Assembly (NCBI GenBank): GCA_031429095.1
Contig: JANOYY010000049.1
Location: 9,712-73,711, forward strand
Direction of reading: 5' to 3'
From: Acidimicrobiia bacterium
Lineage (GTDB): Bacteria; Actinomycetota; Acidimicrobiia; Acidimicrobiales; JANYDT01
Length of the DNA stretch: 64,000 nt
Below are positions 11,499-38,284 of this stretch, piece after piece. A program made the position numbers and the translations under genes. The stretch's first letter is position 1; each line of letters opens with the position of its first letter. The notes beneath the pieces were generated by a model. The model was not told where the DNA came from and ran no database searches. It worked only from the letters and a program-made list of their open reading frames with translations.

Positions 11499-11526
11499 AC
11501 ATCGACAAGACCCGTTTATTTCTTGA
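11499..11526 (-). promoter_or_regulatory. Sigma-28 (WhiG/FliA)-type promoter of the HD-GYP gene
   Basis: Minus strand TCAA-N16-GTCGATGT ending 7 nt before the GTG start. Confidence 0.55.
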
Positions 11527-11558
11527 TTGTCGTCGACGGTATTGGCCCACAATGGACC

Positions 11559-11587
11559 GAAAGCCCCACCGATTTCGCGGTGAGGAC
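11559..11587 (-). terminator. Hairpin downstream of sdhB
   Basis: Minus strand CCTCACCG-cgaaat-CGGTGGGG followed by CTTTC. Confidence 0.5.
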
Positions 11588-11595
11588 ATGTTCAT

Positions 11596-12381
11596 CTATG
11601 AGCGGCTGAGCATGCGCCGATTCTTGAACTTCGACTTGATGTAGTCCTTGTTCATCATCGCAATCCAGTCGATCGAGATCGACTTCGGGCACGCCTCCTG
11701 GCACTCACCATGGTTCGTGCAGGAGCCAAAGAACTGCTCCATCGTCTCCACCATCGCTTCGGTTCGCTTGTACCGCTCGGCCTGGCCCTGGGGGAGCAGG
11801 TTCATATGGGCAAGCTTGGCACTGGTGAACAGGTTCGCCGCGCCGTTGGGACACGCAGCGACGCAAGCTCCACAGCCGATACAGGCCGCGGCATCCATGG
11901 CTGCGTCGGCCACCGGCTTCGGAATCGCAATGAGGTTTCCGTCCGGCGCACCACCTGACGCCACAGTGATATAGCCGCCGGCTTCAACGATCCGATCGAA
12001 GGACGAACGGTCAACCATCAGGTCTTTAATCACCGGAAACGCTGTGGCTCGCCACGGTTCGATCGTGATAGTGACACCGCTTCGGTACTGGCGCATGTGC
12101 AACTGACACGCCGTAGTGCCTTTCTGCGGCCCGTGCGCCTGACCGTCGATCATCAACGAACATGTGCCGCAAATGCCTTCCCGGCAATCGTGATCGAAGG
12201 TGATTGGCAGCTTGCCCTCGTCGTTCAAGCGCTCATTGAGAACATCGAGCATTTCGAGAAAACTCATGTCGGGCAACACTCCCTCCACGACATAGTCCTC
12301 GAATTGACCCTGAGCAGTTGGGCCGTCTTGACGCCACACCCGAAGGCTGATCGTCATCGTCTCTCCGTGTGGCGCGTTCAC
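11596..12381 (-). CDS. sdhB: Succinate dehydrogenase/fumarate reductase iron-sulfur subunit
   Basis: [33 protein letters not shown]. Confidence 0.96.
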
Positions 12382-14309
12382 TTGTAGCTCCTGACTGCTG
12401 GCTTCACGAACTCAAACGTGAGTTCCTCTTTGTGTTTGGTTCCCAATGCCATTTCTCCGTTGAACTCCCAGGCCGAGACGTGGGCAAAGTTCTCGTCGTC
12501 GCGTTTTGCTTCTCCGTCTTCGTACTGATGCTCGGTACGGAAGTGGCCGCCGCAGCTCTCTTCACGGTCGAGGGCGTCTTGGCACATCAGCAAACCAAGG
12601 CCAAAGAAGTCGTCGACTCGACCCGCCCGCTCAAGCGACTGGTTCACGGATCTGTCGTCGCCGAGCACTCGAAGGTCGGTTTTGAACTCTTGGTGGAGCG
12701 CCGGAATCTCAGACAATGCTTTCTCGAGACCCGTCTTATTGCGTTCCATCCCGCAGTAATCCCACATGATGTGGCCCAGTTCGCGGTGAAAGTGATCAAC
12801 CGACTTTCGACCTTTGACCCCGAGGTATTGCGAGAACCGACCCTTCGCATGACTAACCGCAGCGGTAAACGCGTCGTGAGTCGTCGGCACCGGCTTCGTG
12901 TTGAGCTGGGGGGCGAGATAATCGCTGATCGTGTACGGAAGCACGAAGTAACCGTCGGCCAGACCCTGCATGAGGGCTGACGCGCCCAAACGATTTGCAC
13001 CGTGGTCGGAGAAGTTCGCCTCACCTGCGGCGTACAGACCGGGAATGGTGGTCATGAGGTTGTAGTCGACCCAGAGCCCGCCCATTGTGTAGTGCGATGC
13101 CGGGTAGATACGCATCGGAGTGTTGTAGGGGGATTCGCCGGTGATGCGCTCGTACATCTCCATGAGGTTGTCGTAGCGCTCGGTAACCTTCTCAGGTCCG
13201 AGTCGGCGCAACGAATCACCGAAGTCGAGATACACACCGTTCTTGAGCGGCCCAACGCCACGGCCCGAGTCGACCTGTCGTTTCGCGGCACGTGACGCGA
13301 TGTCACGTGGCGCAAGGTTGCCGAAGCTGGGATACATCCGCTCCAGGTAGTAATCGCGCTCGTCTTCGGGAATGTTCTGCGGCGCACGCTCCTCGCCGAC
13401 CGCTTTGGGCACCCAGATGCGACCGTCGTTGCGCAGCGACTCCGACATGAGCGTGAGCTTGGACTGGAACTCGTCACTCTGTGGAATGCAGGTGGGATGA
13501 ATCTGTGTGAAGCAGGGGTTCGCGAAGAGCGCACCCTGGCGATGGGCCCGCCAAGTCGCTGTCACATTGCACTGCATTGCGTTGGTGGAAAGGAAGAAGA
13601 TGTTCCCGTAGCCACCGGTCGCCAGAACGACCGCATGTGCACTATGTGCGCTTACCTCACCGGTGCGAAGGTCACGGGCAATGATGCCGGCAGCCTTGCC
13701 GTCGACGGTGACAACGTCGACCATTTCGGTCCGGTTGTAGAGCTTGACGGTTCCGAGATGGATTTGCTGGGCGAGCGCAGAGTACGCCCCGAGCAAGAGT
13801 TGCTGGCCGGTCTGACCCTTCGCGTAGAACGTCCGGCTTACTTGCGCACCACCGAACGAACGGTTGTCGAGCAACCCGCCGTACTCCCGGGCAAAGGGCA
13901 CACCTTGCGCAACGCACTGGTCAATGATGTCGACCGAAACCTGGGCGAGGCGATGGACGTTCGATTCACGCGCACGGAAATCGCCGCCCTTCAACGTGTC
14001 GTAGAACAGCCGGTGGACCGAGTCACCGTCGCCGTGGTAATTCTTCGCAGCGTTGATACCGCCCTGCGCTGCTATCGAGTGAGCTCGACGGGGCGAATCG
14101 TGAAAGGTAAAAATCTTTACGTTGTAACCGAGGCCGCCGAAAGTCGCAGCGGCCGAAGCTCCCGCAAGTCCGCTTCCCACGACGATGATGTCGAACTTGC
14201 GTTTGTTGGCTGGGTTCACCAGCTTGACATTGAACTTGTGGTTGTCCCACTTCTCGCTGATCGGGCCAGCGGGGGATTTGGCGTTGAGGTCGTACGTCTT
14301 CGTGCTCAT
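12378..14309 (-). CDS. sdhA: Succinate dehydrogenase/fumarate reductase flavoprotein
   Basis: [31 protein letters not shown]; start reassigned to MSTKTY. Confidence 0.96.
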
Positions 14310-14323
14310 CTCGGTGCCCTTTG

Positions 14324-15085
14324 TCAGATCTTTACAATGCCAGCGAGGACGGCGACTGGGAAGCTGACGTTCCCGGCCACAATGAGCCCGGAAATTCCCA
14401 TGGCAAATGCTCGCTTGAGTTTGTTGAATTTCGGATTGTTCAGGCCGAGGCTCTGAAAGAAGCTCCACGCCCCGTGGAAGAGGTGCGTGCCGAGCGCCAG
14501 GTTCGCAACGATGTAGATGATCGCAACGAATGGCCGACTCAGACTGTGATCGATGTTGGCGTAGACGCGTCCCCGGCTCCAGGAGTCCGATGCCGCCGGG
14601 CTCGCACCCCAGGTGAGATCGGCAAGGTGGAAGATCAGATAGAGGAATACGATGACGCCGCTTACTCGCATCGTCCGGCCGGCATAGTTTGCAGCGATGT
14701 AGTCACGCTTGGAGGCGTAGTTCACCGTGCGGGCTTTCCTATTCATGATGGTCAGGCTGAACGCGGCGTGCATATGCAGCGCGAACGCTCCAATCAATCC
14801 GATGCGGCTAATCCACAACAAGACGTGATTTGGAAGAATCGGGGAACCGATTCTGCGCAAAAACTCTCCGTATTCGTCGATATGGTACGCGTACTCACTT
14901 GTCGCTGGCATGGCGCCGAGGTACATCTTCAGGTTCCCGATCATGTGACCGAGAGCGAAGAGGATGAGGAAAACCCCGGTGATGGCCATGGCGTACTTCT
15001 TGCCGACCGCTGATCGATACAGCTCCACGAGGAATGGTGTTTTTCTCACCCTCGGCGCGCCGGTTGTCGTTGAAACGTTTGCCAT
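14324..15085 (-). CDS. sdhC: Succinate dehydrogenase cytochrome b subunit (single large anchor)
   Basis: [34 protein letters not shown]; about five TM helices. Confidence 0.92.
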
Positions 15086-15292
15086 GGGATCCTCCGGCGT
15101 CGTATCGACGCCACCGATGGGGCTTATCTTCGGAAAGAAACGGTAGGAGAATTCCTTCGTTTCCAGCGATAAAGCTACTCCTGTCGATGGAGACATCCGT
15201 AATCGTCGGACGGATTCTTTGACCGCGTTTTGCCGTCAGGTCATTTGGCGTTCAAAGTCGTCAGACGTCTTCGTGAGTCCGAACCGATCCAC

Positions 15293-15319
15293 CGGTCCGC
15301 GGCGAAACGCCGCGGACCG
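15293..15319. terminator. Perfect 12-bp hairpin
   Basis: CGGTCCGCGGCG-aaa-CGCCGCGGACCG downstream of the 552-aa gene. Confidence 0.6.
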
Positions 15320-15343
15320 CGCCCGTAGTGTTTCCGGACTTGC

Positions 15344-17002
15344 CTATTTTACGCCTTCGAAGAATTCTCGTCCCCGATCGAGTTCAGCTGCATAAATCGT
15401 CGCGTACTCACCCATTCCCTCCCTGACGCCCTGTCGGATCAGTGCAACGGCGGAATCCTCATCGAGTTTCTCGAGTGCACCCACCCGCTCTTCGAAGGTG
15501 TCGCCTGCAAACACATTCCGCAGGATCGAATCGGCGATACCCCCGAGCACCATGATTTCGATACCTTCCGGGCTCGGGCAACTCAGGCACGGGTTCGGCT
15601 TCGGCGCAAACTCGAGCTTTCGTGGCGCTTCTCGAAGGTACTCCTCGATAAAGCGGTCAAGGAGTTTGCGGTCCAGATCCTTGAGATGATCGAGTACGAA
15701 AAGCGTTACCCAGCAGGGCCCGAGATGTCGGAGCAAGTGCTGGCGAAGCGTCAACCCGAGTTCGAAGCGGCTTTGTTCGAACGCATACTCCTCGATCCCG
15801 GGGTAGGCAAAAAAACTCTCGACGAGGGTGGCCGTGAAACCAAGATAGATATGCGACGCCGGAGCAAGCCAAAGCGCCAGGTTGAGGTAGTAGCGCTTGA
15901 TCTTCTCCCAGTTTGGGCCTCCGGTGGCTTCGAGCTGTGTGATGTTGATGTTCATCCAGTGGTGCCACGTCGAATCGGCGGCGACACGACCGATCCCAAC
16001 GCGATGTCCGTCGTAGACACTGATCATCGAAAACCGTTTCGCCGGCGAGTCACCCTTGGCGTGTTGCAATGGCGGGTCGGCAAGAGTTCGTCCGCGTGCA
16101 ATCACGAACGGCAATGATCGAATTCCAAAAGCTGTTGGATACTCGTCTCCTGCGACGCCGTTGAAGTTATAGGTGTTGCCCAAAGTTATGGCGGCAAGAT
16201 TCACGTCCGGCTGAACCACGTGGTCGAACACGACACCTTCGTGCGGATGATCCGGCATCACATCGATTGGTCCGAGCGCTGGATGACAGAGCACGGGGTG
16301 GGGTCGACGATGGATCGTCCACGGAAAGTGGCGATGCGTGTACCACGCTACCCACTCGATGTTCTGCGGCAAGGTGTCGCCTTGGCGGTCAAAGGCAATG
16401 ACGTCGGTACCGGCGATCTCAGCTGCCGTAAACGGCCGATTGGTGTCGATGCGAGCCTCGCCGCCTACCGGAGGCACACCTTGGGCGTTGCTCCATGCCC
16501 GCATGGTGCCGATTCGCGGCATACGACTACAGAGCGCCTCGCCCAACGTCGCATGGTCGCCGGTGGCAAAGAGTCCCCCGCCGTTGTTCATCCACGTTGT
16601 CAGCGAAGCGAGTTCGTCGTCCTGGGTGATCGGGCCGCTCGCCCCGAAACACCAAATCTGGTCGTATCCATCGATCACCTGGGCGCCGCCCGGCAGAACA
16701 CTGTTGAATCGAAAGCCCACATACTTTGCCGCAGTGCCCGCCGGGTTCGCAACGATGCTGAATTGCCCTACGTTGTGCACGGCCACGTCGGCGTGAAAGT
16801 GCCAGAGGCCAACGTTGCTTTCTCGCAGCAGTCGGATAACGCGTTCGATTCCGAACTCGTCCGGTCCGGGAGAGAGGCTGATGCCCGCATCGACAACTAC
16901 GAGAATTTTTGAGTGGCGAAAGCGAAACTTCTTGACCAATAGCTCGTTGAGCGCGGGACGAGCGAAATCAACGACGTTTGAGTTCTCCAGATTGAAGTCC
17001 AT
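15344..17002 (-). CDS. Hypothetical protein, possible GATase/ThuA-like fold with His motifs
   Basis: 552-aa ORF with RBS GGAG; YDQIWCFG, GGGLFATGDH, PDHPHEG, DSTWHHW. Confidence 0.8.
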   Translation of the reverse strand: MDFNLENSNVVDFARPALNELLVKKFRFRHSKILVVVDAGISLSPGPDEFGIERVIRLLRESNVGLWHFHADVAVHNVGQFSIVANPAGTAAKYVGFRFNSVLPGGAQVIDGYDQIWCFGASGPITQDDELASLTTWMNNGGGLFATGDHATLGEALCSRMPRIGTMRAWSNAQGVPPVGGEARIDTNRPFTAAEIAGTDVIAFDRQGDTLPQNIEWVAWYTHRHFPWTIHRRPHPVLCHPALGPIDVMPDHPHEGVVFDHVVQPDVNLAAITLGNTYNFNGVAGDEYPTAFGIRSLPFVIARGRTLADPPLQHAKGDSPAKRFSMISVYDGHRVGIGRVAADSTWHHWMNINITQLEATGGPNWEKIKRYYLNLALWLAPASHIYLGFTATLVESFFAYPGIEEYAFEQSRFELGLTLRQHLLRHLGPCWVTLFVLDHLKDLDRKLLDRFIEEYLREAPRKLEFAPKPNPCLSCPSPEGIEIMVLGGIADSILRNVFAGDTFEERVGALEKLDEDSAVALIRQGVREGMGEYATIYAAELDRGREFFEGVK

Positions 17003-17155
17003 GATGCATCTCCGTTCGAATGTCAGTAGTAGGACCTTCGCGGTTCGTCACAGGAACTGAGCACAAACCGTCGTGTCACAGAGTCCTGTCGCTGCGGCCA
17101 GATACAACGAAGAGTCAAAAGTTTCGATTCAACTGCGACGGGTCGCCGCAAAAAA

Positions 17156-19339
17156 TCAAACGAAACGACTCATATACCGATTCGTCGCCGTAGCTTCGGG
17201 GTGGGTGACCGTCAGGTCGAGGAGGAGGTGCGGATCAACCACACCGGGCCGGTGTTGGGCTGACGGGTGAGCGGGTGACGGGAGGACGATGTCGACCGCC
17301 CCGATTCTCGTCACAGCATCGGCCGCAATGTCGCCGGTCCACTCCCAGCGATGCAAGCCCCCGGGCCACTGCAGCACGGCAAGCACAACCGCATCTCGCA
17401 GAACGTGTCGGACGTCGGAGACGACGTGGACATCGAGGGCCAGTGTGTCGTGCACAGAAACGACGGAAGGCAACCGATCGGCGGTCACGATGACGCGACG
17501 ACACGCGTCGGCGACGGCCTCGTAGCCGAGTTTGGCGCGGCGGTCGTGACCGAGCACCGACCACGTGATGGCGAAATGGTCGAGGGGGTCGTTCAGCATG
17601 AAGAACGCAAAGCCCCCGTTCGGGCGGTACTTGATCCGGCGGAGTTCTTCGATGTGGCGCCGAAGCAGGTTCGCCTGGTACTCCTGCGTCGCCTGCTTCC
17701 AGTCGCTGTAGTGCACGAAGTTCGATGGATTGACATCGGCGTTGCGTTCGAAGAACGTCTTCTGGAGCGAGTGGTGTTTCCCGAGATGGTCCCAGTCGAG
17801 TTCGGGCCAACGCGACGCGTCGATGAAGTCATCGGTCACCGGAATCGACTGCGATCCGAACTCGCTGATGAAACGCGCCATGCGAGGCACGGAACGCAGC
17901 AGCGTTGGAAGATCACGTTCACTCCCGTGATACCAACCGAAATAGACGTGCGTGTCAGTCCCACCCGACGTCGGCCCGGGTAGCACACCCGAATGGGCGG
18001 TTACCGGCCGGGAAGGATCGGCTTTAGTAAGCGCACGATGTATTCCCAGGTCGAGAACCGATTTGTTCCATGTGGGTAGCTGCTGAAGAAGCAGGTACCG
18101 GGCGATCATGTCGGCCGCCTTTTTCGGCGAGCCGTTCACCGCTTCGGGATTGACATCGAGTGCGAGGGGTTCGTTGTGACCACACCAATGAATGATCGAG
18201 GGATGATGCCCGTGTAGATCAACCAACTCACCGGCCTGACGGATCGCCTGTTTCCGCACGCTTCGCGCATAGCCCCACTGCAGCGGCATGTCCTGCCACA
18301 CCATCATCCCGAGCTCATCGGCGGCGTCATAGAACGCCGGATGCGTCACGTGTGCATGGACTCGCACGAAATCAAGCCCGGCGTCTTTCGCCAGCGCAAG
18401 GTCGCGGTGCAGTTCGTCATAGGTCGCATCGCCTATCGCCATCCGCGTGGGGCCGACGTTTGCGCCCTTCAGGTGCATTCGTTCGCCATTGATCTCAAAG
18501 ATCCAATCGTGGCTGCGTACCTGTCGGAGGCCGGTGCGTCGACGGCGTTCGTCGGACACTTCACCGGTTTCGGGATCGATGATCTCCACGGCTAGCGACG
18601 TCAGGTGCGCTTCACCGAGCGACCACGGCCACCAGAGCCTCGGACGCTCAATGGTAACTCGCCATTCGACGCGATTCGAGCCGCTGGCCAGTTGGTGCTC
18701 TTCTTCGTCGAGCGTATCGCCAACGGATGATCGTATGCGTACAGACCGAGCCGTCGTGCTATCGAGAACTGCCCGGATTGCCAGAACCGCCCGTTCGCGG
18801 TTCGCTTCCAGGCACACGACCCTGAGACGAACGATCCGAACGGGTCCAGTCTCAAACACCGAAACCGGACGCCAAATGCCACCGGGGTTCCAGTCTGGTT
18901 CGATGCAGTCCCAGTGCTGGAAGACACCGGTGAGATTGCGTTTCGCCGTACGAGTCCGCTGCGGCGCACAAGTCACCTCGACGCCCAGGAGATGCTCGGT
19001 CTCCTGCTGGAGCGCTTCGGTAATCTCGAAGGTATGAGGAACGTAGTAACCCTCGGTGTCACCGAGATATCGACCGTCGAGCCACACGTCGCCTTGATAG
19101 AAAATGCCTTCGAATCCCAGCCAGGCCCGACGACCGGCGGTGGGGGTCGGAGTGTGGAACCAAGTCCGCAAAAGGAGCGCGTCGTCGTTTTCTGCGAAGG
19201 CGGACTCGTTGCGCCAATGCCCGGGAACCGTAACGGCGTGCCAGACCGAGTCAGCAGCGTCGTCGATCTCCGCGGTTGCGAAGACACGACGTAACTCGTC
19301 GTTGGCCACCGCGGCCCGCCACTGTCCTCCCAAATCCAT
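17156..19339 (-). CDS. Glycoside hydrolase family 2 (beta-mannosidase-like)
   Basis: LGFEGIFY, GGIWRPV, LKGAN, HPSIIHWCGHNEP (acid/base), FISEFG (nucleophile). Confidence 0.9.
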   Translation of the reverse strand: MDLGGQWRAAVANDELRRVFATAEIDDAADSVWHAVTVPGHWRNESAFAENDDALLLRTWFHTPTPTAGRRAWLGFEGIFYQGDVWLDGRYLGDTEGYYVPHTFEITEALQQETEHLLGVEVTCAPQRTRTAKRNLTGVFQHWDCIEPDWNPGGIWRPVSVFETGPVRIVRLRVVCLEANRERAVLAIRAVLDSTTARSVRIRSSVGDTLDEEEHQLASGSNRVEWRVTIERPRLWWPWSLGEAHLTSLAVEIIDPETGEVSDERRRRTGLRQVRSHDWIFEINGERMHLKGANVGPTRMAIGDATYDELHRDLALAKDAGLDFVRVHAHVTHPAFYDAADELGMMVWQDMPLQWGYARSVRKQAIRQAGELVDLHGHHPSIIHWCGHNEPLALDVNPEAVNGSPKKAADMIARYLLLQQLPTWNKSVLDLGIHRALTKADPSRPVTAHSGVLPGPTSGGTDTHVYFGWYHGSERDLPTLLRSVPRMARFISEFGSQSIPVTDDFIDASRWPELDWDHLGKHHSLQKTFFERNADVNPSNFVHYSDWKQATQEYQANLLRRHIEELRRIKYRPNGGFAFFMLNDPLDHFAITWSVLGHDRRAKLGYEAVADACRRVIVTADRLPSVVSVHDTLALDVHVVSDVRHVLRDAVVLAVLQWPGGLHRWEWTGDIAADAVTRIGAVDIVLPSPAHPSAQHRPGVVDPHLLLDLTVTHPEATATNRYMSRFV

Positions 19340-19443
19340 CGCACGACCGTACTGCTCCGAAACGAGATAGCTGCGTCACTGTCGATAGTGTGATTCCGAT
19401 TCCCAGTTCGATCCGTACGAAAACCCCATTTCATACGCAATGA

Positions 19444-19758
19444 ATTCCACCTGAGTTCAACAACGAGCTCCTGAAGTACGACCTCACCGACGGCAGCTGC
19501 GTCCCCCACTCCTTCGGCACCGGCCGTCAACCTGGCGAAGGCGTGTTCGCGCCCCTGGTTCCTTCTGGTTCAGACAAGCCCGCCGAAGACGATGGTTGGG
19601 TCATGACGTTTGTCTACGACCGGGCCACCGACCGCAGCGAGTTGGTCGTCCTTGACGCGAGCAATTTCGATGGGCCTCCCGTGGCCACCATCACCGTTCC
19701 TCGACGCGTACCGTTCGGTTTCCATGGCACCTGGGTCCGGGCATCGCAGCTGCCGTAA
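19444..19758 (+). pseudogene. C-terminal remnant of a carotenoid oxygenase (RPE65 family)
   Basis: ELLKYDL...PGEGVF..EDDGWVM..PRRVPFGFHGTW; only ~105 codons after in-frame TGA at 19441. Confidence 0.8.
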
Positions 19759-19829
19759 ATACCCGACGTTGGGAAGAATCGGTTCGCCACACGAGGAGAT
19801 TTGACCGAACGTCGCGGGTTGGAGGCGGT

Positions 19830-20513
19830 TTACGCCAACGCGGGCCCGGCGAATCGGTCGACCGTTGCGAAGCTCGCGACGGACCTGCGGGTCAGCTTGT
19901 TATTTTGGTGTTCGGGTACACCGAGCGCGATAAGCGACGCTATTGCCATGTACTTCGGAAGGCCGAGCACCTCTTGAGCTTGTGGTTCACGGCGAACGAG
20001 GAACGTCGTCATCACGCCGCCCAGCCCTTCAGTTCGTGCCGCCAGCAAAATGTTCTGAGTGAACGGATAGATGCTGGCGCCGCTGGCGACGCCGATGCGA
20101 TCGAGCTCGGTATCGACCGAAGCGACCGCGCGCAGGTCGACGGCAACCACCAAAAGGACCGGAGCGTTCTCGATACCATCCATGAACGGCCAGGGCCGGT
20201 TCTCCAGCGCTTCAACGGCCAGGTCCATACCCGGCGGCGGACCGGGCCAGTTCCCAGTTTCGTCGGCGGCAAACGGCCTCACTCCCGCTTTCGTCATCGC
20301 CGCATATTCGTTCCATCCCATTCGCGCCAGCGATCCGATTTTCTGGCGCACCGCAGGGTCTTTCAGCACGATGACGTGCCAGCCCTGCTGATTACCGCCG
20401 CTCGGTGCGAACCGGGCGGCATCAAGCACACGGGCGAGCGCATCGTCGGCCACCGCAGCGTTCCGAAATGCCCGCACTGATCCGTTCGTTCGCATCGCGT
20501 ATAGAAGGTCCAT
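19830..20513 (-). CDS. Nitroreductase family protein
   Basis: SVRAF, APSGGNQQGW, QNILLAARTEGLG; start reassigned to MDLLYAM. Confidence 0.9.
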   Translation of the reverse strand: MDLLYAMRTNGSVRAFRNAAVADDALARVLDAARFAPSGGNQQGWHVIVLKDPAVRQKIGSLARMGWNEYAAMTKAGVRPFAADETGNWPGPPPGMDLAVEALENRPWPFMDGIENAPVLLVVAVDLRAVASVDTELDRIGVASGASIYPFTQNILLAARTEGLGGVMTTFLVRREPQAQEVLGLPKYMAIASLIALGVPEHQNNKLTRRSVASFATVDRFAGPALA

Positions 20514-20648
20514 GGCGGAGACGGTACTCCTTGCCTGGCCCTCGGGGCTTCCGGAACGTCGCTCAGGAGCCACTCGACGGTCCACTCGACGGTCCTGCGC
20601 GAACATGCGAGGATCAAAAGCACCCAACACACAATCTAGGAGAACCAC

Positions 20649-21203: not shown

Positions 21204-21230
21204 GGCCCGCAGCCGCGCGTTCAACCCGCG

Positions 21231-22031: not shown

Positions 22032-22177
22032 CGGGCAACGCTAGCGCTAGCGGCCGAAACAGAAATCCGATACTCGCAGAAGCTTCGGCGAAACATCCCC
22101 GGGCTCTCAACCACCCTCAAACCACCTCAAACCAAACGACAACGGAAATCGCTTCGTAAAACACCTACATTCGCGAT

Positions 22178-26860: not shown

Positions 26861-26875
26861 TGCAACGTTTCACCG

Positions 26876-26901: not shown

Positions 26902-26933
26902 GATGTTGCGCATGATTCGATTCGAGGAGACCC

Positions 26934-27332: not shown

Positions 27333-27450
27333 GTTCGTTCTGGCTGTGCCAGCGCCGCTTCTCGACCACTCCACCCGTGCTGCGCTAGTCGGCGCTAGTC
27401 GGGCGACGAAGCGGGCTGGTTGGTGGTGCGGAGCGGGAGTTCGGGGAAGG

Positions 27451-27595: not shown

Positions 27596-27677
27596 GGAGT
27601 TCGTTGCCCTTGCGACCCGAATGGACAATCACCGCTGGTCAAGAACCCCACGACCGCAGTTCCGGAAAGGAACCACC

Positions 27678-28124: not shown

Positions 28125-28218
28125 CGAGGGCGCTGCTTAGTGGTCGGCTGGCTGCGAGGGACTACCGAGGTGGGACAACGGCACCACGTTGTGGTGCCGT
28201 TCCGGTACCCTCGGAGGG

Positions 28219-29846: not shown

Positions 29847-29858
29847 GTAAGAACTGTA

Positions 29859-29873
29859 TCTCACATAATGAGA
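29859..29873. promoter_or_regulatory. Palindromic operator, likely IclR site
   Basis: TCTCA-CATAA-TGAGA between the IclR gene and leuC. Confidence 0.6.
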
Positions 29874-29932
29874 CGCGGCGAGACGGTGGGCACTTTTGAC
29901 CGCAGCGAGAAAATCATCCGCGAGAGGACCCG

Positions 29933-31348
29933 ATGGGCAAGACACTGAGCGAAAAGATCTGGGATCGCCACCTCGTACGGGCCGCCGACGGCGAACCCGA
30001 CCTTCTCTACGTGGACCTTCACCTGGTCCATGAAGTCACCAGCCCGCAGGCCTTCGACGGGCTCCGGATCACCAACCGCAAGGTTCGCCGCCCTGATCTG
30101 ACCGTCGCCACGATGGACCACAACGTGCCGACCGACATCGCCGGTCTCGGCATGCACAACATCGATCTGGTGACCGATGAGGTCAGCCGAATTCAGATGC
30201 TCAAGCTCCAGGAAAACGCGACCGAGTTCGGTGTGCCGCTCTTTGCCATGGGCGACAAGCGTCAGGGCATTGTCCACGTCATTGGACCGGAGCAGGGTCT
30301 CACGATGCCGGGCATGACGATCGTATGCGGCGACTCACACACCTCAACCCATGGTGCGTTTGGAGCGATTGCCTTCGGCATCGGCACGAGCGAAGTCGAG
30401 CATGTGCTGGCCACCCAAACGCTTCCCCAGACCAAGCCCAAAACCATGGCGATCAACGTGAACGGCGTCGTGCCGAAAGGCGTCACGCCCAAAGATGTCG
30501 TGCTCGCAATCATCGCCAAGATCGGCACTGGCGGCGGAATGGGCCACATAGTCGAATACCGCGGCAACGTGTTCCGCGAGATGTCGATGGAAGGCCGTAT
30601 GACCGTGTGCAACATGAGCATTGAAGGTGGTGCAAAGGCTGGTCTCGTCGCACCGGATGAAACTACGTACGCATATGTAAAGGGCAAACCCTATGCCCCG
30701 AAGGGAGCCGACTGGGACGCCGCCCTTGCCGACTGGACGACACTGGTCACCGACGACGATGCCGTGTTCGACAAGGTTGTCGATATCGATGCGTCAACCC
30801 TTGAACCACACGTCAGCTGGGGAACCAATCCAGGTCAGACTCTGCCAATTACCGCTACGGTCCCGGACCCGTCGACAATTACCGACCCGGTCGAGCGCGA
30901 TGCCGCCGAGCGGGCGATCCAATACATGGGACTCACCGCCGGTCAGACGATCAAGTCGATCGAGGTGAACACCGTGTTCATCGGTTCGTGCACGAACAGC
31001 CGCATCGAGGATCTCCGTGCTGCCGCCGCCGTATTTCGCGGACGCAAGGCGAAGGCGGGTATCCGGGCATTGGTCGTGCCGGGAAGCTTCCTCGTCAAGG
31101 AACAGGCCGAGTCGGAGGGTCTCGACAAAGTGTTCCTCGATGCCGGTGTCGAGTGGCGCCAACCAGGCTGCTCCATGTGCCTCGCCATGAACCCGGACAA
31201 ACTGGACATCGGTGAACGTTCGGCATCGACGTCGAATCGAAACTTTGAAGGACGTCAGGGCCGCGGTGGTCGCACCCACCTCGTGTCCCCCGATGTGGCC
31301 GCCGCGACCGCCATTGCCGGCCACCTCGCCACACCCGATGATCTCTGA
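29933..31348 (+). CDS. leuC: 3-isopropylmalate dehydratase large subunit
   Basis: [50 protein letters not shown]. Confidence 0.98.
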
Positions 31349-31402
31349 TCCATTCGGGTCTCGCCACGATTCCTACGCGCACTGAAGAACGGACAAGAAA
31401 TC

Positions 31403-31993
31403 ATGAAAGCAGTACAGGTCATTTCCGGTACAGCGGTGCCCCTCGATCGTTCCGACGTCGACACCGATCAGATCATTCCCTCCGACTGGCTGAAGCGCAT
31501 CGAGCGAACCGGGTTCGGCAAGGGCCTCTTCGGCGAATGGCGCGACGATCGCAACTTCGTTCTGAACAAGGAGGAATACGTCGGGGCGACCATTCTGGTG
31601 GCCGGTCCGAACTTTGGAACCGGCTCCTCACGTGAGCACGCGGTCTGGGCGCTGGAGGACTACGGATTTCGCGCGGTGATCTCTCCACGATTCGGCGACA
31701 TCTTCAGCAACAACGCAACCAAGGTCGGACTCGTACCGGTACAGGTGGACGCAGCATTTGGCGAGCAGCTCCTGCGCGCCGTCGAGGCCGACCCGACACT
31801 TGAGATAACGATCGATGTGGAACGTCGAACTGTGAGTGCACCTAAGATTGGGTTGGAAACGACTTTCCCGATCGACGACTTCACGCAGTACCGTCTCCTC
31901 AACGGTCTCGACGACATCGGGCTAACGATGCGCAACGACGACGCTATTGGAACCTTCGAGACATCTCGGCCTGCCTGGGCTCCGAAAGCCTAA
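31403..31993 (+). CDS. leuD: 3-isopropylmalate dehydratase small subunit
   Basis: DVDTDQIIP, FGTGSSREHA, LLNGLDDIG. Confidence 0.98.
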   Translation: MKAVQVISGTAVPLDRSDVDTDQIIPSDWLKRIERTGFGKGLFGEWRDDRNFVLNKEEYVGATILVAGPNFGTGSSREHAVWALEDYGFRAVISPRFGDIFSNNATKVGLVPVQVDAAFGEQLLRAVEADPTLEITIDVERRTVSAPKIGLETTFPIDDFTQYRLLNGLDDIGLTMRNDDAIGTFETSRPAWAPKA

Positions 31994-32033
31994 CGTCGAT
32001 CATAGAAGTCCCTCTCATCGTTAGGGTTTGTCG

Positions 32034-32081
32034 CACCATTCGTGCCATTCGTGCCATTCGTACCATTCGCACCATTCGTGC
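32034..32081. repeat. 9-bp tandem repeat x5
   Basis: (CCATTCG-TG/TA/CA)n between leuD and the CAP gene. Confidence 0.85.
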
Positions 32082-32086
32082 TCGCG

Positions 32087-32114
32087 TCAAGTTTTTGGCG
32101 GGGCATGCCGATGC
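32087..32114 (+). promoter_or_regulatory. Sigma-28 (WhiG/FliA)-type promoter
   Basis: TCAA-GTTTTTGGCGGGGCAT(16)-GCCGATGC, 34 nt before ATG 32149. Confidence 0.6.
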
Positions 32115-32148
32115 TGTTCCCCCGGGGATAGGCGCAAAAGGAGAGACC

Positions 32149-33345
32149 ATGCGCAGAGCTCAAGTTGTTCAGCTGTTCCTTGTTGTCCCGTTCGGTGGTG
32201 CGCTGGCCTTCGCAGGGGGGACCGCTGCACACTCATCATCGACCAGGTCGGCCACGTCGACCACGTCGACACGGTCGACCTCCAGCTATTGCAGCGTGGC
32301 GCAATCCGAATTCGGTGGACCCACACGGGTCCTGAATTTCGATGTGACGACGACACCATTCACAATTGGCGCCGCTGCCATTTCTGATCTTCAAACCAGC
32401 CTGCTGCGAACCAAGCCGGTTGCGCCGTTGGACGTCATCCCCACGTACAACTCAAGTCTCGCTGCGCTTCGCTCCACCGGGAACGCCTGGAGAACGATGA
32501 AGACTGCCAGGAACGAGTCTCGACGAACATCTGCACGCATACGTTTTACCCAATCGAACGCAACCCTGCGCCTGGAAACCGACAAACTTCGCGTCCAGGT
32601 AACAAGCGCGTGTTCAACGTTTCGTGTGGCCAGCCCACCGGCTGCGCCTCCGGTGCAGGTGGCTCCAGTGAGGGCACCTCCGTTGCCCGCAGCGCCCGCG
32701 CCCTTTACTCCCGTGCCGTCCACTCCAGCGCCGTCCACTCCCGTGCCGACCGTTGTTGTCGTGGCGGTTCCGGTCACACCGAATCCGCCGCCGCAAGCGC
32801 CGCCCGCCGCGGCGGCGACTCCGGTCGCGGCGACTGCTGTCACGCCCGTCCTCATATCACCGGTACCTGTTTCGCCCGCACCGGCGCCCCAACCGCCGTC
32901 TCCGCAACCGGGCCCGCAACCGGGCCCACAACCGAGTCCACCGCCCAGCGGCAACGCCACGTCATGGTTGGCGTTCGTGAACCAGGCACGTGCGCAGTCT
33001 CGGGCATGTGGAACAACGGTGTTCGCTGCTGCCCAGCCGCTTGCGTGGGATACGAGGCTCGAAGACACAGCGCGAGGCCATTCCGCATATCAGGCCCAGA
33101 TTGGACAACTCACCCACACGGGCACCGGAGGTAGCCAGGCCGGCCAACGAATCACCACCGCCGGATTCACCTGGAGCTACTGGGGAGAGAACATCGGTTG
33201 GAACTACCCGAATGCAGCCTCAATGCTTCAGGGGTGGCTCACCTCGCCCGCCCACTGTTCTCAGATCATGGACTCCCGGTTTACCCATGTCGGCTGGGCC
33301 AACGTGTCGGGCTACGACACCATGAATCTCGGTCGGGTCGCCTAA
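32149..33345 (+). CDS. Exported CAP (SCP) domain protein with Pro-rich linker
   Basis: Signal-like N-terminus, Pro/Ala linker, VNQAR..CG, HS, GENIG, WLTSPAHC..IM; RBS AAGGAG. Confidence 0.88.
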   Translation: MRRAQVVQLFLVVPFGGALAFAGGTAAHSSSTRSATSTTSTRSTSSYCSVAQSEFGGPTRVLNFDVTTTPFTIGAAAISDLQTSLLRTKPVAPLDVIPTYNSSLAALRSTGNAWRTMKTARNESRRTSARIRFTQSNATLRLETDKLRVQVTSACSTFRVASPPAAPPVQVAPVRAPPLPAAPAPFTPVPSTPAPSTPVPTVVVVAVPVTPNPPPQAPPAAAATPVAATAVTPVLISPVPVSPAPAPQPPSPQPGPQPGPQPSPPPSGNATSWLAFVNQARAQSRACGTTVFAAAQPLAWDTRLEDTARGHSAYQAQIGQLTHTGTGGSQAGQRITTAGFTWSYWGENIGWNYPNAASMLQGWLTSPAHCSQIMDSRFTHVGWANVSGYDTMNLGRVA

Positions 33346-33367
33346 GCACCGGCTTTACGTGCGACGA

Positions 33368-34195
33368 CTAGAACAACGACTCGATCACTGCGGCGACACC
33401 GTGATCATCGTTGGACAGCGTCACCTGATTCGCCAGTGACTTGATCGTGTCGTGAGCATTCGCCATCGCAACACCGTGACCCGCCCACGCCAGCATTTCG
33501 GCGTCGTTCGGCATGTCGCCAAAGGCCAATACGCGCTTTGACGCAATCCCCTCACGTTCACAAATCCACTGCAACGCCGTCGCCTTCGACACATTCGGAG
33601 CCATGACCTCAAGGAGCGTCGTGGCACCGGGCACCGGCACCGCAGAGCCGAACGTGAGGCTCCCGATACCCGCGACGGCTTCACCGAGTGCCGCATAACG
33701 GTCCGCGCTGATGTCGGGGTCCTTGAACAGCACCTTGAGAATCGAGGTGTTCAACAACGCTTCGACCGGCTCGATGCGGTAGTCAGCCGGGATCGCCCAA
33801 CTCGGTACGTAATTCGGCTCATGACCAAATCCTTGAGGACCGTCGATCGCAAACGCCGCTCGCGGGCTGACCGAACGAATGGCCGCGACAATCGCCAAGG
33901 CGTCGTCGGGCGATACCAACGAAGTGTGAAGCACGCGCTCATGGTCATCGTTTATCGAAAGATCGAGGATTACCGCACCGTTGGACCCGACTGCGTAGCT
34001 GCGATGTCCAGTCTCTTCAGCGACGGGTTCGATCCAACGAGGCGGACGCCCAGTAGCGAACACGAAGAACGCGCCCGAATCAAGCATTCGCCGAATGGCG
34101 GAATGAGTACGCGCGCTTATTGAATCGGACGTGGACAGTAGCGTGCCGTCGAGATCCGAAGCAACCAGATCAAACCCACGTCCGCCGTTCGTCAT
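33368..34195 (-). CDS. Cof-type HAD hydrolase
   Basis: DLDGTL, ATGR, SKATAL, FGDMPND. Confidence 0.92.
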   Translation of the reverse strand: MTNGGRGFDLVASDLDGTLLSTSDSISARTHSAIRRMLDSGAFFVFATGRPPRWIEPVAEETGHRSYAVGSNGAVILDLSINDDHERVLHTSLVSPDDALAIVAAIRSVSPRAAFAIDGPQGFGHEPNYVPSWAIPADYRIEPVEALLNTSILKVLFKDPDISADRYAALGEAVAGIGSLTFGSAVPVPGATTLLEVMAPNVSKATALQWICEREGIASKRVLAFGDMPNDAEMLAWAGHGVAMANAHDTIKSLANQVTLSNDDHGVAAVIESLF

Positions 34196-34207
34196 AGGCA
34201 GAACAGC

Positions 34208-35779
34208 CTACGCTTCGTCGATCACATCAACGGCGGTGATTCCCGCGGTTGACCTCAGCTCTTCGACGGCAGCACCCGGTACGGGACCCTCGGTATCGAG
34301 CATCATGAGCGCACTTCCGCCGGTCGCCGAACGTCCAAGCGCCATGTTGGAAATGTTGACCTCATGCGCCGCAAGGGTCATCCCCACGGCACCGATCATG
34401 CCCGGGCGGTCATCGTTGCGGACAACGAGAAGGTGCTTCGACGGCGGGACCTCAACGTAGTGATCGTCCACCATGACGATGCGCGGCTCCATCTTCAGGC
34501 CAGCCAGCGTCCCCGCAATCGAGTGCCCACACGACGATCGGAGCGTGATCTTGTTGCGATAGTCCTCGCTGTGTGAGGTCTTGGAGTCGGTGATGACGCA
34601 TCCGGCGGCTGCCGCTAGTTGCGGCGCATTCACGTAGGAGACAGGTTCCGCCGACCGATAGCCGAACAAGCCCTTCATGACGGCGAGGCGAAGGATCCGG
34701 GTGTCGTATCCGGCGATCTGTCCAGCAAAGCTGATGTCGAGCGTTGCCATGCCACCGCGGCAGATACCGGCCATCAAGCGACCCAACCGTTCGGCCAACG
34801 GCAGCAGCGGACGAATTGTCTCGCTCGCCTCGGCTGCATCAACGTTCACCGCAAAGGGTACGAACTCACCGGCCAGCGCAAGCTGGACCATGTCAGCAAT
34901 CGTGTCGCCGGCTTTGTCTTGGGCTTCGCGCGTGGAGGCACCCAGGTGGGGAGAAACAACGATCGACGGCAACGTAAACAGCGGTGAATCGGTGCAGGGT
35001 TCTTCGACGAATACATCGAGGCCGGCACCGGCAATCTGGCCCGACGACACAGCGTCGAAGAGTGCCTGCTCGTCAACGATCCCGCCGCGAGAGGTGTTGA
35101 TGATGCGCAGATCAGGCTTGGCAATCGCGAACATGGCAGCGTCGATGATGCCTGTCGTGTCCTTCGTTTTCGGAAGATGTACTGAAATGAAATCGGACTG
35201 GCGCATGCAGTCTTCAAGGGTCACGAGCTCAGCGCCAAGTTGTGCAGCGCGCTCGGAACTGATGAACGGATCGAACGCGATCACCCGCATGTCGAACGCC
35301 GCGCACCGGGCGGCAACAAGCGCACCGATTCGACCGAGCCCGACAATCCCTACGGTCTTGCCGTGCAGTTCGACACCCTCCCACTTCGAACGCTCCCACT
35401 TCCCGTTCTTCAGGGCGGCGTGCGCTTGCGGGGTATTACGAGCAGTTGCGAGGATCAGCGACATGGCCTGTTCGGCGGCCGAGATCATGTTCGACTGCGG
35501 TGCATTGACGACCATCACGCCACGCGCCGTTGCGGCGGGCACGTCGACGTTGTCGAGACCAATGCCGGCACGTCCAACGACACTCAGCACGTCGGCGGCC
35601 GCAAGCACCTCGGCGGTCACCTTCGTGGCCGAGCGAATGATCAGGGCCTCGGCACCTTTGATTGCATCCAGCAATTGCGCGGGGGAAAGACCTTCCCGAA
35701 CGTCGACGGTGTGGCCAGCCTTGCGGAGCTGCTCAAGGCCGCGTTCGGCGATTGTCTCGGTGACCAGGATACGTGCCAT
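34208..35779 (-). CDS. serA: D-3-phosphoglycerate dehydrogenase (with ASB and ACT domains)
   Basis: GRAGIGLDNVD, GLGRIG, PHLGAST.EAQ, DRPGMIG. Confidence 0.96.
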   Translation of the reverse strand: MARILVTETIAERGLEQLRKAGHTVDVREGLSPAQLLDAIKGAEALIIRSATKVTAEVLAAADVLSVVGRAGIGLDNVDVPAATARGVMVVNAPQSNMISAAEQAMSLILATARNTPQAHAALKNGKWERSKWEGVELHGKTVGIVGLGRIGALVAARCAAFDMRVIAFDPFISSERAAQLGAELVTLEDCMRQSDFISVHLPKTKDTTGIIDAAMFAIAKPDLRIINTSRGGIVDEQALFDAVSSGQIAGAGLDVFVEEPCTDSPLFTLPSIVVSPHLGASTREAQDKAGDTIADMVQLALAGEFVPFAVNVDAAEASETIRPLLPLAERLGRLMAGICRGGMATLDISFAGQIAGYDTRILRLAVMKGLFGYRSAEPVSYVNAPQLAAAAGCVITDSKTSHSEDYRNKITLRSSCGHSIAGTLAGLKMEPRIVMVDDHYVEVPPSKHLLVVRNDDRPGMIGAVGMTLAAHEVNISNMALGRSATGGSALMMLDTEGPVPGAAVEELRSTAGITAVDVIDEA

Positions 35780-35890
35780 GCCCCAACGCTAGGCGGATTG
35801 GTCTGTACGAAACGTACGGGCCGACCATGGCCACCGTCACGCGTGGGCGAGCGGGCGCCCTCGTCACGCCACCCGCTAGCGTTGTCAACC

Positions 35891-36877
35891 ATGACCACCT
35901 GGCTTCTCACCGGCGGTGCCGGCTATATCGGCCCCCACATCGCCCGTTCTTTTCTGGCGTCGGGTCGAAACATCGTGGTCCTCGACGATCTGCGAAATGG
36001 CTTCGTCGAAAACGTTCCCGAGGGCGTCACACTGGTACAGGCCACGACCCGAGATGGTGATGCGGTCGAAAAGACCCTCCGCGATTTCGGAGTTGACGGT
36101 GTCGTTCACCTGGCGGCGTTAAAGGCGGTTGGCGAGTCGGTGGAGCATCCTCTGCGGTACTACCGGGAAAACCTCGATGGCATGCTCACGCTCCTCGAGC
36201 GCATGGAATCCGTCGGTGTCCGCAAGATGGTGTTCTCGTCGTCGGCGGCCGTATATGGCGACGTTGCCGTAGAGACGGTGACCGAGGAGACGCCGCGCGT
36301 CCCAACGAGCCCGTACGGTGAGACGAAGCTGCTCGGTGAGTGGATGATGAAGGCACTCCATATTGCTGGCCAGCTCGATGCAGTCGCATTGCGGTACTTC
36401 AACGTGGGCGGCTCCGGTGCACCAGAACTGGGCGATCGTGGCGTGAACAATCTCATTCCGCTCGTGTTTCGCGCCCTCGAAGCAGGGAAGGCACCGCTGA
36501 TCTTCGGTGCCGACTGGCCGACGCATGATGGGTCATGCATCCGCGACTACATCCATGTCGTTGATCTGGGCGAAGCTCATCTTGCCGCCGCCGCAAAGTT
36601 GGAAGGCCTGCCCAACGGCGAACGTCTTCTGCGCACATATAACATTGGCACCGGCGAAGGGACTTCGGTAATTGAAGTCATCAACGCTGCGCTGCGAATC
36701 ACCGGCATCGACATCGACCCGGAAGTCGTCGCCCGTCGGGCTGGCGATCCGGCACGCGTCGTGGCCGATCCGTCGGCGGCTCATCGCGACCTGAACTGGA
36801 AAGCCGAACGATCACTCGACGACATGGTTTCATCAGCGTGGGACAGCTGGCAGCACCAGCGGGCAACAAAGAACTAG
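35891..36877 (+). CDS. galE: UDP-glucose 4-epimerase
   Basis: TGGAGYIG, KAVGES, SSSAAVYG, YGETK, LRYFN, RDYIHV; start reassigned to MTTWLL. Confidence 0.93.
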   Translation: MTTWLLTGGAGYIGPHIARSFLASGRNIVVLDDLRNGFVENVPEGVTLVQATTRDGDAVEKTLRDFGVDGVVHLAALKAVGESVEHPLRYYRENLDGMLTLLERMESVGVRKMVFSSSAAVYGDVAVETVTEETPRVPTSPYGETKLLGEWMMKALHIAGQLDAVALRYFNVGGSGAPELGDRGVNNLIPLVFRALEAGKAPLIFGADWPTHDGSCIRDYIHVVDLGEAHLAAAAKLEGLPNGERLLRTYNIGTGEGTSVIEVINAALRITGIDIDPEVVARRAGDPARVVADPSAAHRDLNWKAERSLDDMVSSAWDSWQHQRATKN

Positions 36878-36883
36878 GTACGC

Positions 36884-38083
36884 TTAACTTTCACGCAATA
36901 GGGCGTTGATCCGGCCAACGCCTTCGGCAAGATCACTGTCCCCCAGTGCGTAGGAGAGACGGGCATAGCCCGGAGCACCGAACGCTTCACCGGGAACGAT
37001 CGCCACCTTGGCGTGTTCGAGGATCAAACTGGCCAGTGTCAGCGATGAGTCGACCACTGTTCCGCGAATCGTGAGACCAATCGCACCCTCCACGCTCGGG
37101 AAGGCATAGAACGCTCCTTCTGGTTCGATACACCGAAAGCCCGGAACCTCCGAGAGGAGGCGCTGGATCGTGAGTCGACGCCGGTCGAATGCTTCTCGCA
37201 TCATGGCAACGGCGGAAAGGTCACCGTTGAGTGCGGCCACGGCGGCCCGTTGCGCAATGTTGTTAACGTTCGACGTGGCGTGGCTCTGCAGGTTAGTTGC
37301 GGCCTTGATCACATCGGGAGCGCCGATCATCCAGCCCACTCGCCATCCCGTCATGGCATAGGTCTTGGCAACACCGTGAACGATGACCAGTCGGTCGCCA
37401 AGCTCGGGCACCAGTGTTGCGATCGATGAGATCTGGCGATCACCATACAATAAGTGCTCATAGATTTCGTCGGTCACGACCCAAAGGTTGTTCTCGGCGG
37501 CCCACGTACCGATCGCGTGCACTTCCTCCGGTGAATACACCGCGCCGGTCGGGTTCGATGGCGACACGAAAAGAAAGATCTTCGTACGTGGCGTCCGTGC
37601 CGCTTCAAGTTGGTCGACCGTCACCTTGAAGCCGGTCGAAATATCGGAGTTCACATAGACGGGCTTGCCGCCCGCCAACTGAATCGCTTCGGGGTAGGTG
37701 ACCCAGTAGGGCGCCTGCACGATCACTTCGTCGCCCGGATCGCACAGCGTCGCGAAGGTGTTGTAGACCGCCTGCTTTCCGCCATTGGTGATCAGCACGT
37801 TTGCCGGCGTGCACGCATACCCCGAGTCGCGCTTGGTCTTGAACACCACCGCCTCCTTGAGTTCGGGCAGACCCCCGGCCGGTGTGTAGCGATGCATCGC
37901 CGGATCTTTGGCAGCGACGATCGCCGCCTCCACGATCTCGTCGGGGGTTGCGAAGTCGGGTTCGCCTGCGCCGAAGCCGATGACCGGTTCTCCTGCGGCC
38001 TTGAGGGCCTTGGCCTTCGCGTCGATCGCCAAGGTTGCGGACTCCTGAATGGCACCGATACGGGCAGAAATTCGTGAACTCAT
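36884..38083 (-). CDS. Class I PLP aminotransferase (aspartate aminotransferase)
   Basis: [32 protein letters not shown]; start reassigned to MSSRIS. Confidence 0.93.
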
Positions 38084-38256
38084 AGGATCGAAAGCCTTAC
38101 ACGTCGCGAGGCGCGGAGGCGTACACATTCCGTGACTTTGGCATTTGGCTGAAAACAGACACTGGCCACGATCACGGCCTGTGTTGACTACCAGGTCGTT
38201 GGGCCTGGTTTTGGGTGCGGTGGGTGGTTCCGGATGTTCATTGTCACTCTGGGTGA

Positions 38257-38284
38257 TCAAAGCGGTGTGTGTGAGTGTCGATTT
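38257..38284 (+). promoter_or_regulatory. Sigma-28 (WhiG/FliA)-type promoter
   Basis: TCAA-AGCGGTGTGTGTGAGT(16)-GTCGATTT, 45 nt before ATG 38330. Confidence 0.5.

Follow-up and report, generated by a model that had tools for sequence, protein, structure and literature searches.

In Streptomyces venezuelae, the sigma factor WhiG has three targets (whiH, whiI, and vnz15005) and drives sporulation, and a spacer of 16 nucleotides (nt; N16) sets its promoters apart from flagellar ones with 15 (N15) (Gallagher et al., 2020, PMC7005675). Rubrobacter radiotolerans, a non-sporulating actinobacterium, carries WhiG paired with the anti-sigma factor RsiG. In the account of Schumacher et al. (2021, PMC8325347), its promoters came from a consensus search in intergenic DNA. 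Start-site mapping confirmed 12 of them, three in a pilus cluster and five before genes for diguanylate cyclases or phosphodiesterases (DGC/PDE), targets that imply feedback on cyclic di-GMP (c-di-GMP). The main text of a recent preprint (Denis et al., 2026, 10.64898/2026.01.14.699351) gives T(A/C)AA-N16-GCCGATAA as the consensus of the WhiG2 clade, with the central CGA required. WhiG2 is paired there with RsiG, and flagellar clusters are tied to WhiG1 only. The predictions span eight actinobacterial families, and c-di-GMP metabolism is the most widespread predicted target class. In this study, we analyzed a window of 64,000 nt (G000:C49:9712-73711) from the assembly of an Acidimicrobiales bacterium, in which an initial annotation had recognized three identically spaced promoters of the sigma-28 type. 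Our results indicate that these motifs are very probably promoters of a WhiG regulon (sigma-28 family, WhiG2-type) in a non-flagellated bacterium.

The system described here has much in common with these precedents. By comparison with the WhiG2 consensus, the motif class of this genome is a match in the -35 element, the spacing, and the -10 core, and differs by TG(A/T) after GCCGA. Both the consensus T(A/C)AA-N16-GCCGA and the regulatory logic are those set out by Denis et al. (2026). R. radiotolerans likewise offers a WhiG/RsiG pair, a consensus search in intergenic DNA, and DGC/PDE targets. With S. venezuelae, the genome shares a close sigma factor, the N16 spacer, and an RsiG-type anti-sigma factor (PMC7005675), in which the first ExxxSxxRxxxQxxxD motif is exact. 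The classical flagellar sigma-28 factors (FliA/SigD) resemble it in the GCCGAT core of the -10 element and the A-rich T-A-A of the -35 element. They differ in the N15 spacer (PMC7005675) and in their flagellar and chemotaxis targets, whereas flagellin was not found in our genome.

As far as the published accounts go, other features set the present case apart. Against the 12 mapped promoters of R. radiotolerans, about 38 to 90 are predicted here. The Rubrobacter RsiG is a single-motif, dimeric protein, whereas the homologue found here is a putative twin-motif form of 178 amino acids (aa). Instead of a type IV pilus cluster, we found envelope, polysaccharide, and adhesin-like genes plus a TadE/TadG-like pair. 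Moreover, many promoters are predicted to be leaderless, at a fixed distance of 7 nt. Unlike the three targets of S. venezuelae WhiG, those predicted here number dozens and include many c-di-GMP enzymes. With respect to Denis et al. (2026), we add controls with other spacings and with the pattern reversed, the geometry of leaderless starts, and a count across the family. The terms Acidimicrobiia, Microthrix, Iamia, and leaderless promoters do not occur in the main text of that preprint, whose supplementary tables may list such genomes. In the available portions of the literature on WhiG/RsiG and c-di-GMP, we found no WhiG regulon for Acidimicrobiales.

Probable promoter motifs with an exact spacer

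All three sites are intergenic and each points at a gene (Table 1). Start codons follow the -10 8-mer after 7 nt (GTG 11491), 34 nt (ATG 32149), and 45 nt (ATG 38330) at sites 1, 2, and 3, respectively. Reading the sequence thus bears out the initial annotation, which had placed three correctly oriented intergenic motifs 7-45 nt before genes. The pattern TCAA-N16-GYCGAT has four matches in the window, against 0.39 expected from 100 shuffles, one of which reached four; the fourth match (4909) falls within a coding frame. In all three sites the -35 tetramer is TCAA, which fits T(A/C)AA, and the spacer is N16. Site 2 has the GCCGA core, and sites 1 and 3 have GTCGA, with one mismatch at position 2 and the central CGA kept. 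This mismatch is permitted by the published WhiG2 search rule, and the last three -10 bases, highly variable according to the same preprint, were omitted from its query (10.64898/2026.01.14.699351). In our genome, the 3' part of the -10 element prefers TG(A/T), with G at position 27 in 19 of the 29 seed sites whose coordinates were used to build the weight matrix.

Table 1. Positions of the promoter motifs, of the genes downstream, of the RsiG homologue, and of the island genes (window coordinates unless a locus label is given).
Feature	Position	Strand	Basis
Site 1: TCAA-N16-GTCGATGT (-35 TCAAG)	11526-11499	-	sequence read
Site 2: TCAA-N16-GCCGATGC (= TCAAG-N15-GCCGATGC)	32087-32114	+	sequence read
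Site 3: TCAA-N16-GTCGATTT (= TCAAA-N15-GTCGATTT); (GT)4 run in spacer	38257-38284	+	sequence read
Gene 1: 938 aa, HD-GYP and PA14	8675..11491	-	Pfam HD_5 7.3e-37, PA14 3.1e-9
Gene 2: 398 aa, signal peptide, Pro/Ala-rich linker, C-terminal CAP	32149..33345	+	Pfam CAP 1.2e-13
Gene 3: secreted repeat protein with signal peptide, poly-Thr linkers, FnIII/Ig-like modules	38330..41481	+	ORF list, fold of one module
RsiG homologue, 178 aa	L053:1557-2093	-	6pfj_T (S. venezuelae RsiG) E 3.6e-14, residues 24-177
Island: DUF222-HNH endonuclease gene	41696-42907	-
Island: second partial copy of gene-3 signal peptide and later segment	43110-43735
Island: 358-aa gene	43686-44762	-

The assembly (G000) comprises 5.01 Mb in 190 contigs, with a GC content of 0.61 and an estimated completeness of 96.9%. 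Genes were called from open reading frames (ORFs) by codon-usage scoring and greedy choice, a crude procedure that gave 4253 genes over 86% of the genome. Over the whole genome, TCAA-N16-GYCGAT has 76 matches, compared with 21-59 at spacings of 14, 15, 17, and 18. The excess is more evident outside genes. At N16, 34 of the 76 matches are intergenic, whereas spacings 12-15 and 17-20 give only 3-10 intergenic matches each (of 21-72). Pooling these eight spacings yields 49 intergenic matches out of 369 (Fisher p 4e-9 against N16), with a non-coding fraction of 0.18. Among alternative -35 tetramers, only TAAA (5/13 intergenic) and TTAA (7/10) share the peak at N16, and the intergenic signal is carried by both -10 variants, GCCGAT (24/41) and GTCGAT (10/35). 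Altogether, 46 intergenic sites fit T[ACT]AA-N16-GYCGAT, whereas the other spacings would predict about 8. The genome-wide enrichment anticipated by the initial annotation is therefore found upstream of genes and at N16 alone, not in coding or shuffled sequence.

These counts set the size of the predicted regulon at no fewer than about 38 promoters above background with GYCGAT, and possibly at about 90 above the N15/N17 level with the relaxed GYCGA. The relaxed motif T[ACT]AA-N16-GYCGA lies upstream of 136 of 3420 background genes, compared with 54 matches at N15 and 37 at N17. A near-identical promoter and start of a gene coding for a GGDEF-EAL protein occur twice, at G000:C130:43844-43871 and G000:C162:83986-84013, at or near contig ends. 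They probably represent one assembly-split locus or a recent duplicate, and the number 46 may count one duplicate.

A second line of evidence comes from start codons and is independent of the gene calls. Among the 99 matches to T[ACT]AA-N16-GYCGAT, coding ones included, 17 have, 5-9 nt past the 8-mer, the start codon of an ORF that encodes 150 aa or more, and in 10 cases, site 1 among them, the distance is exactly 7 nt. The same test at spacings 13-15 and 17-19 gives 0-1. Scored as one pattern, TCAA-N16-GYCGAT-N9-RTG occurs 17 times in the genome, and its reversed control does not occur. We then extended this count to 30 relatives, 18 from the same family and 12 from other families of the order. 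Same-family genomes hold 5-25 matches each, 220 in total, with 2 for the reversed pattern. The genomes from other families hold 0-5 each, 26 in total, with 1 for the control. Of 150 other genomes sampled across the phylum (four of them flagged unpublished and entering this tally only), most have 0-4, with a maximum of 9. The high counts in same-family genomes indicate that a high promoter number is a trait of the family of this bacterium.

The fixed distance also bears on what kind of element the motif is. Bipartite motifs of fixed spacing can be operators, and the sites could be read as binding sites of a transcription factor, or as another non-promoter element, upstream of envelope genes. 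We regard this as highly improbable: the motif is non-palindromic and strictly oriented, and its 7 nt to start codons run parallel to the position of ordinary -10 boxes at 6 nt. The initial annotation had assigned TANNNT boxes to the ordinary genes of this genome, which is borne out here. Exactly 6 nt before the start codon, TANNNT is present in 281 of 3577 called genes, whereas other distances show a background of about 10-25, apart from 85, 50, and 62 further genes at 7, 8, and 9 nt. This peak implies that leaderless transcription is common in G000. A distance of 7 nt is thus, judging from sequence geometry, what is expected of a -10 element, and many transcripts of the motif class are probably leaderless.

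As WhiG promoters, the sites would be recognized by WhiG-RNA polymerase through T(C/A/T)AA(G) and G(C/T)CGAT(G) with a spacer of exactly 16 nt, and transcription would start about 8 nt past the 8-mer. At site 1 and many other members of the class, the start would be the start codon itself, which at site 1 is the G of GTG 11491, giving a leaderless mRNA. The mRNAs from sites 2 and 3 would have short leaders that include a ribosome-binding site. For site 2, the start is predicted near 32122, with a 5' leader of about 27 nt that contains GGAG. For site 3, it is predicted near 38292, and a ribosome-binding site precedes the start codon.

Just upstream of site 2, at window 32036-32081, there are 5.1 copies of a 9-bp unit (89% matches), and the repeat ends 5 nt before the -35 element. 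It was not found in the orthologous upstream region of G002, a genome of the same genus. A regulator-binding array or a slippage product could account for it.

The sigma factor and its candidate anti-sigma factor

Both genes that the initial annotation had proposed to look for were found. One WhiG/FliA gene, on contig C68, scores above the curated cut-off of TIGR02479 (273.7 bits vs 189.6). Among solved structures, the best match is S. venezuelae WhiG in complex with RsiG (6pfv_A, E 2.4e-93), and true FliA proteins follow at E 1e-49 or weaker. The nearest named relatives of the protein, at 67-72% identity, come from Acidimicrobiales metagenome-assembled genomes, Rhabdothermincola, and Candidatus Microthrix.

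The genome holds four further sigma genes, which reach 100-112 bits with the FliA/WhiG model and stay under its cut-off. The promoter class could therefore be real and yet be read by another alternative sigma factor, either one of these four SigB/SigF-like group-3 proteins or a factor of the extracytoplasmic function (ECF) type. CGAT-like -10 elements are known for some actinobacterial ECF sigma factors. Nevertheless, in the -35 T(A/C)AA, the exact N16, and the GCCGA core, the motif class agrees element by element with the published WhiG2 consensus. In addition, the targets (c-di-GMP enzymes, pilus-like, and envelope proteins) match the classes published for WhiG, both in Rubrobacter and phylum-wide. 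We consider another sigma factor an unlikely reader of these promoters, and WhiG the preferred one.

An all-frame search for ExxxSxxRxxxQxxxD returned five matches, one of them in a 178-aa protein on contig C84. This protein is a homologue of S. venezuelae RsiG (Table 1) and also matches, more weakly, single-motif RsiGs. Among the 31 genomes (G000 and its 30 relatives), WhiG is present in all and the RsiG homologue in 28, as a single copy in 18/18 same-family genomes and in 9/12 from other families. Twin-motif RsiG has been reported in three of four Acidimicrobiales species (PMC8325347). Flagellin (PF00669) was not found in this 96.9%-complete genome, and a flagellar regulon was rejected on this ground. 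The lack of a flagellin match and the co-occurrence of RsiG are both in keeping with the WhiG2 clade.

No WhiG-type motif, even in relaxed form, lies upstream of whiG or rsiG that would suggest autoregulation. In the neighborhood of whiG (G000:C68), an ORF for a XerC-like tyrosine recombinase lies upstream (L001 320-1270). Downstream, at L001 2290-2829, there is a small secreted ORF that is M23-peptidase-like by sequence alone.

Envelope and c-di-GMP genes behind the motif

The three window genes had been described as coding for exported or membrane proteins (HD-GYP/PA14, CAP, and Ig-like). This description agrees with the Pfam matches, the translations, and one modelled module, with the proviso that the frame of gene 3 is broken. 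The translation of gene 1 runs from N-terminal transmembrane segments through the HD-GYP domain, another transmembrane segment, and a long Thr/Pro stalk to PA14. The HD and GYP signature residues are intact, and the product is a predicted c-di-GMP phosphodiesterase. None of five gene-3 fragments matched a Pfam family. However, one 96-aa module was modelled from its single sequence as a beta-sandwich (pLDDT 81) that resembles the FnIII-like modules of CbhA and the Ig-like domains of the adhesin SiiE (TMq 0.66-0.74). The fold model thus lends fair support to the label Ig-like for this module.

To a large extent, the products of the 46 downstream genes are of the same kind. By simple hydropathy, 34/46 have a hydrophobic segment vs 1285/3290 in the background, and in 24/46 vs 661/3290 it lies within the first 70 residues. 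A Thr/Pro-rich stalk is found in 5/46 vs 41/3290. We scanned 43 of the 46 downstream ORFs against Pfam as a set and the three window genes separately. A family was matched by 25 of the 43 and none by the other 18. The c-di-GMP families comprise GGDEF (three ORFs) and GGDEF-EAL (two). The envelope families are SLT/LysM, sortase, Wzy_C (twice), L,D-transpeptidase (YkuD), TadE, SdrD_B, DUF2334, Spherulin4, and PA, and three ORFs code for ABC ATPases. No sporulation regulators were seen among the downstream genes.

The TadE match belongs to a TadE-like and TadG-like (871 aa) pair at L162 5625-8657 (G000:C137), behind TAAAC-N15-GTCGAT with the start codon 6 nt past the 8-mer. The pair lies in a cluster for haem biosynthesis (hemA, hemC, hemD, hemB, and hemL-like). 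No other Tad genes were found near it, nor a full pilus cluster.

The association with c-di-GMP enzymes is also seen when the search starts from the enzymes. G000 has 20 genes with a GGDEF domain. The strict motif lies upstream of 6/20, compared with 47/3420 in the background, and the relaxed motif upstream of 9/20, compared with 136/3420; a somewhat longer span was covered for the GGDEF genes than for the background, and every match lies upstream of the start codon. Three of the five GGDEF proteins found first keep the GGDEF signature, two of these being fused to EAL-like domains, and the other two are degenerate. Both HD-GYP genes of the genome carry a WhiG-type motif. The second one (G000:C29, start codon 98627, + strand) has TCAAG-N15-GCCGAC 6 nt before a GTG, a -10 variant that escapes the strict pattern. 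The proposal of a surface and c-di-GMP regulon, made initially from three genes, thus holds for the larger set, in which envelope proteins and c-di-GMP enzymes are overrepresented.

Some of these promoters are conserved in relatives. We scanned 20 loci with HD-GYP relatives, from G000 and 19 of the 30 relatives. The strict motif is upstream of four: the window gene, its orthologue in G002 (75% identity), a relative in G007 (48%), and an HD-GYP gene of G001 (39%). The G002 orthologue has TCAAG-N15-GCCGATGT 7 nt before a GTG, with a wholly different spacer. Similarly, the G002 orthologue of the CAP gene has TCAAG-N15-GCCGATGT 33 nt before its start codon, and the spacer has diverged. Several further matches in G002 and G003 are clearly orthologous to G000 sites, as is the case for the promoter of the SLT/LysM gene.

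By analogy with Streptomyces and Rubrobacter, the RsiG homologue would hold WhiG inactive at high c-di-GMP and release it when c-di-GMP falls. The output of WhiG, mainly envelope and secreted proteins together with 6-9 of the genome's 20 GGDEF genes and its two HD-GYP genes, would then feed back on c-di-GMP in both directions, positively through phosphodiesterases and negatively through cyclases. The initial annotation had envisaged positive feedback. This part is plausible through the HD-GYP phosphodiesterase, but it would be half of the picture, because genes of the GGDEF cyclase type share the promoter.

Doubts, the third site, and meaning for the family

Several observations weigh against a WhiG regulon. 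WhiG is proposed as the reader of the motifs from their likeness to the published consensus and from the presence of the sigma gene, and a natural control free of WhiG was sought among the 30 relatives, all of which carry it. In the RsiG homologue, the first ExxxSxxRxxxQxxxD motif is exact, but the second one has H for Q in the alignment with 6pfj_T. Sites 1 and 3 carry GTCGAT, not GCCGAT, and the classical -10 ending TAA is absent, sites 1, 2, and 3 ending in TGT, TGC, and TTT, respectively. By chance, about 8 intergenic sites among the 46 are to be expected. Moreover, the intergenic classification rests on the crude gene calls, among which the CAP gene is a known mis-call. Housekeeping-like genes (ClpP, ETF-alpha, NMO, ferredoxin, and NUDIX) follow some of the sites, and these sites are likely false positives. 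With regard to conservation, 16 of the 20 HD-GYP loci lack the strict motif, many of them being matches to the catalytic domain only or cut by contig ends, and G001 has no motif beside leuD. Three more points concern site 3. No orthologous locus was found in the same-genus genomes G001 or G002, the frame of gene 3 is broken and spread over several overlapping frames in the window, and site 3 lacks the favored G after TCAA (position 5 is G in 21 of the 29 seed sites). In addition, a contig of run X4, which comes from another study, has an extra GT at 38264, within the GT run of site 3, and this would make an 18-nt spacer. Strain variation or a promoter of variable length could explain this variant.

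Even so, we hold sites 1 and 2 to be very probably functional. Site 3 is the least certain because it combines a spacer variant in the GT run, a non-preferred base after TCAA, and the expectation of about 8 chance sites in 46; we regard it as somewhat probable that it functions. Gene 3 belongs to a strain-variable island of about 6.5 kb (window 38260-44750), between an aminotransferase gene (36884-38080, - strand) and serC (44756-45880). This island also holds an endonuclease gene, a 358-aa gene, and a second partial copy of gene-3 sequence (Table 1). It is missing from G001, where the aminotransferase gene abuts serC, and in G002 a different gene stands in between.

Contigs of four public DNA runs were compared over window 38000-43600. 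Relative to the window, they show small indels within gene 3, among them two letters after position 38596 and one after position 38978 in X4, and one after 38704 in X1. Further small indels lie near 41334-41338 and 41622, and divergent contig ends at 38668-38682. One X5 contig omits 38163-41455 entirely, and another contig joins 43398 back to 40676. Some of these differences would change the open frames, and the breaks in gene 3 may therefore be strain differences or assembly faults. Gene 3 was not classed as a pseudogene, because the break regions are where other assemblies show such indels.

An alternative reading keeps sites 1 and 2 as real but takes site 3 for a chance match, or for a decayed promoter before a decaying, strain-variable gene. 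The chance sites, the TCAAA, the TTT ending, the missing or replaced segment in G001 and G002, the X5 and X4 variants, and the split frame all fit it. On the other hand, site 3 is intergenic and correctly oriented, and the start codon 45 nt downstream has a ribosome-binding site. The gene-3 product, with its signal peptide, poly-Thr linkers, and Ig-like modules, is of the type enriched in the regulon, and indels occur in other assemblies, so that the frame breaks may be artefacts of assembly or strain. We consider decay or chance at site 3 a possibility to be taken seriously, but the less probable one. A functional WhiG promoter remains our preferred reading of site 3.

Acidimicrobiales are widespread and barely cultured, and the sludge filament Microthrix is a relative. 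DNA near-identical to the window is present in metagenomes from freshwater sediment. The mechanism itself is not new: the WhiG2-RsiG pairing, the T(A/C)AA-N16-GCCGA promoter, the non-flagellar surface targets, and the control of DGC/PDE genes are already in print (PMC8325347; 10.64898/2026.01.14.699351). The gain lies in breadth and detail, and what is new here is an unusually large and clean regulon, its leaderless geometry, and its spread across the family. Our results provide a concrete and testable map of a c-di-GMP-controlled role of WhiG in Acidimicrobiales. In metagenome-assembled genomes, the exact-spacing motif and its 7-nt distance could be used to annotate true start codons and members of the regulon.

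Beyond the window, this family of Acidimicrobiales may have enlarged the RsiG-c-di-GMP-WhiG switch into an extensive, mostly leaderless regulon of 40-90 promoters that would remodel the envelope and also include about half of the c-di-GMP enzymes, a proposal for which we find the balance even. If true, WhiG would be a hub for the control by c-di-GMP of both the cell surface and c-di-GMP metabolism itself, in bacteria that neither swim nor sporulate. Its envelope targets would include adhesin-like proteins with Thr/Pro stalks, enzymes of polysaccharide and peptidoglycan, a sortase, and the Tad-like pair. This suggests that c-di-GMP may switch the surface and adhesion properties of these sediment bacteria as a block.

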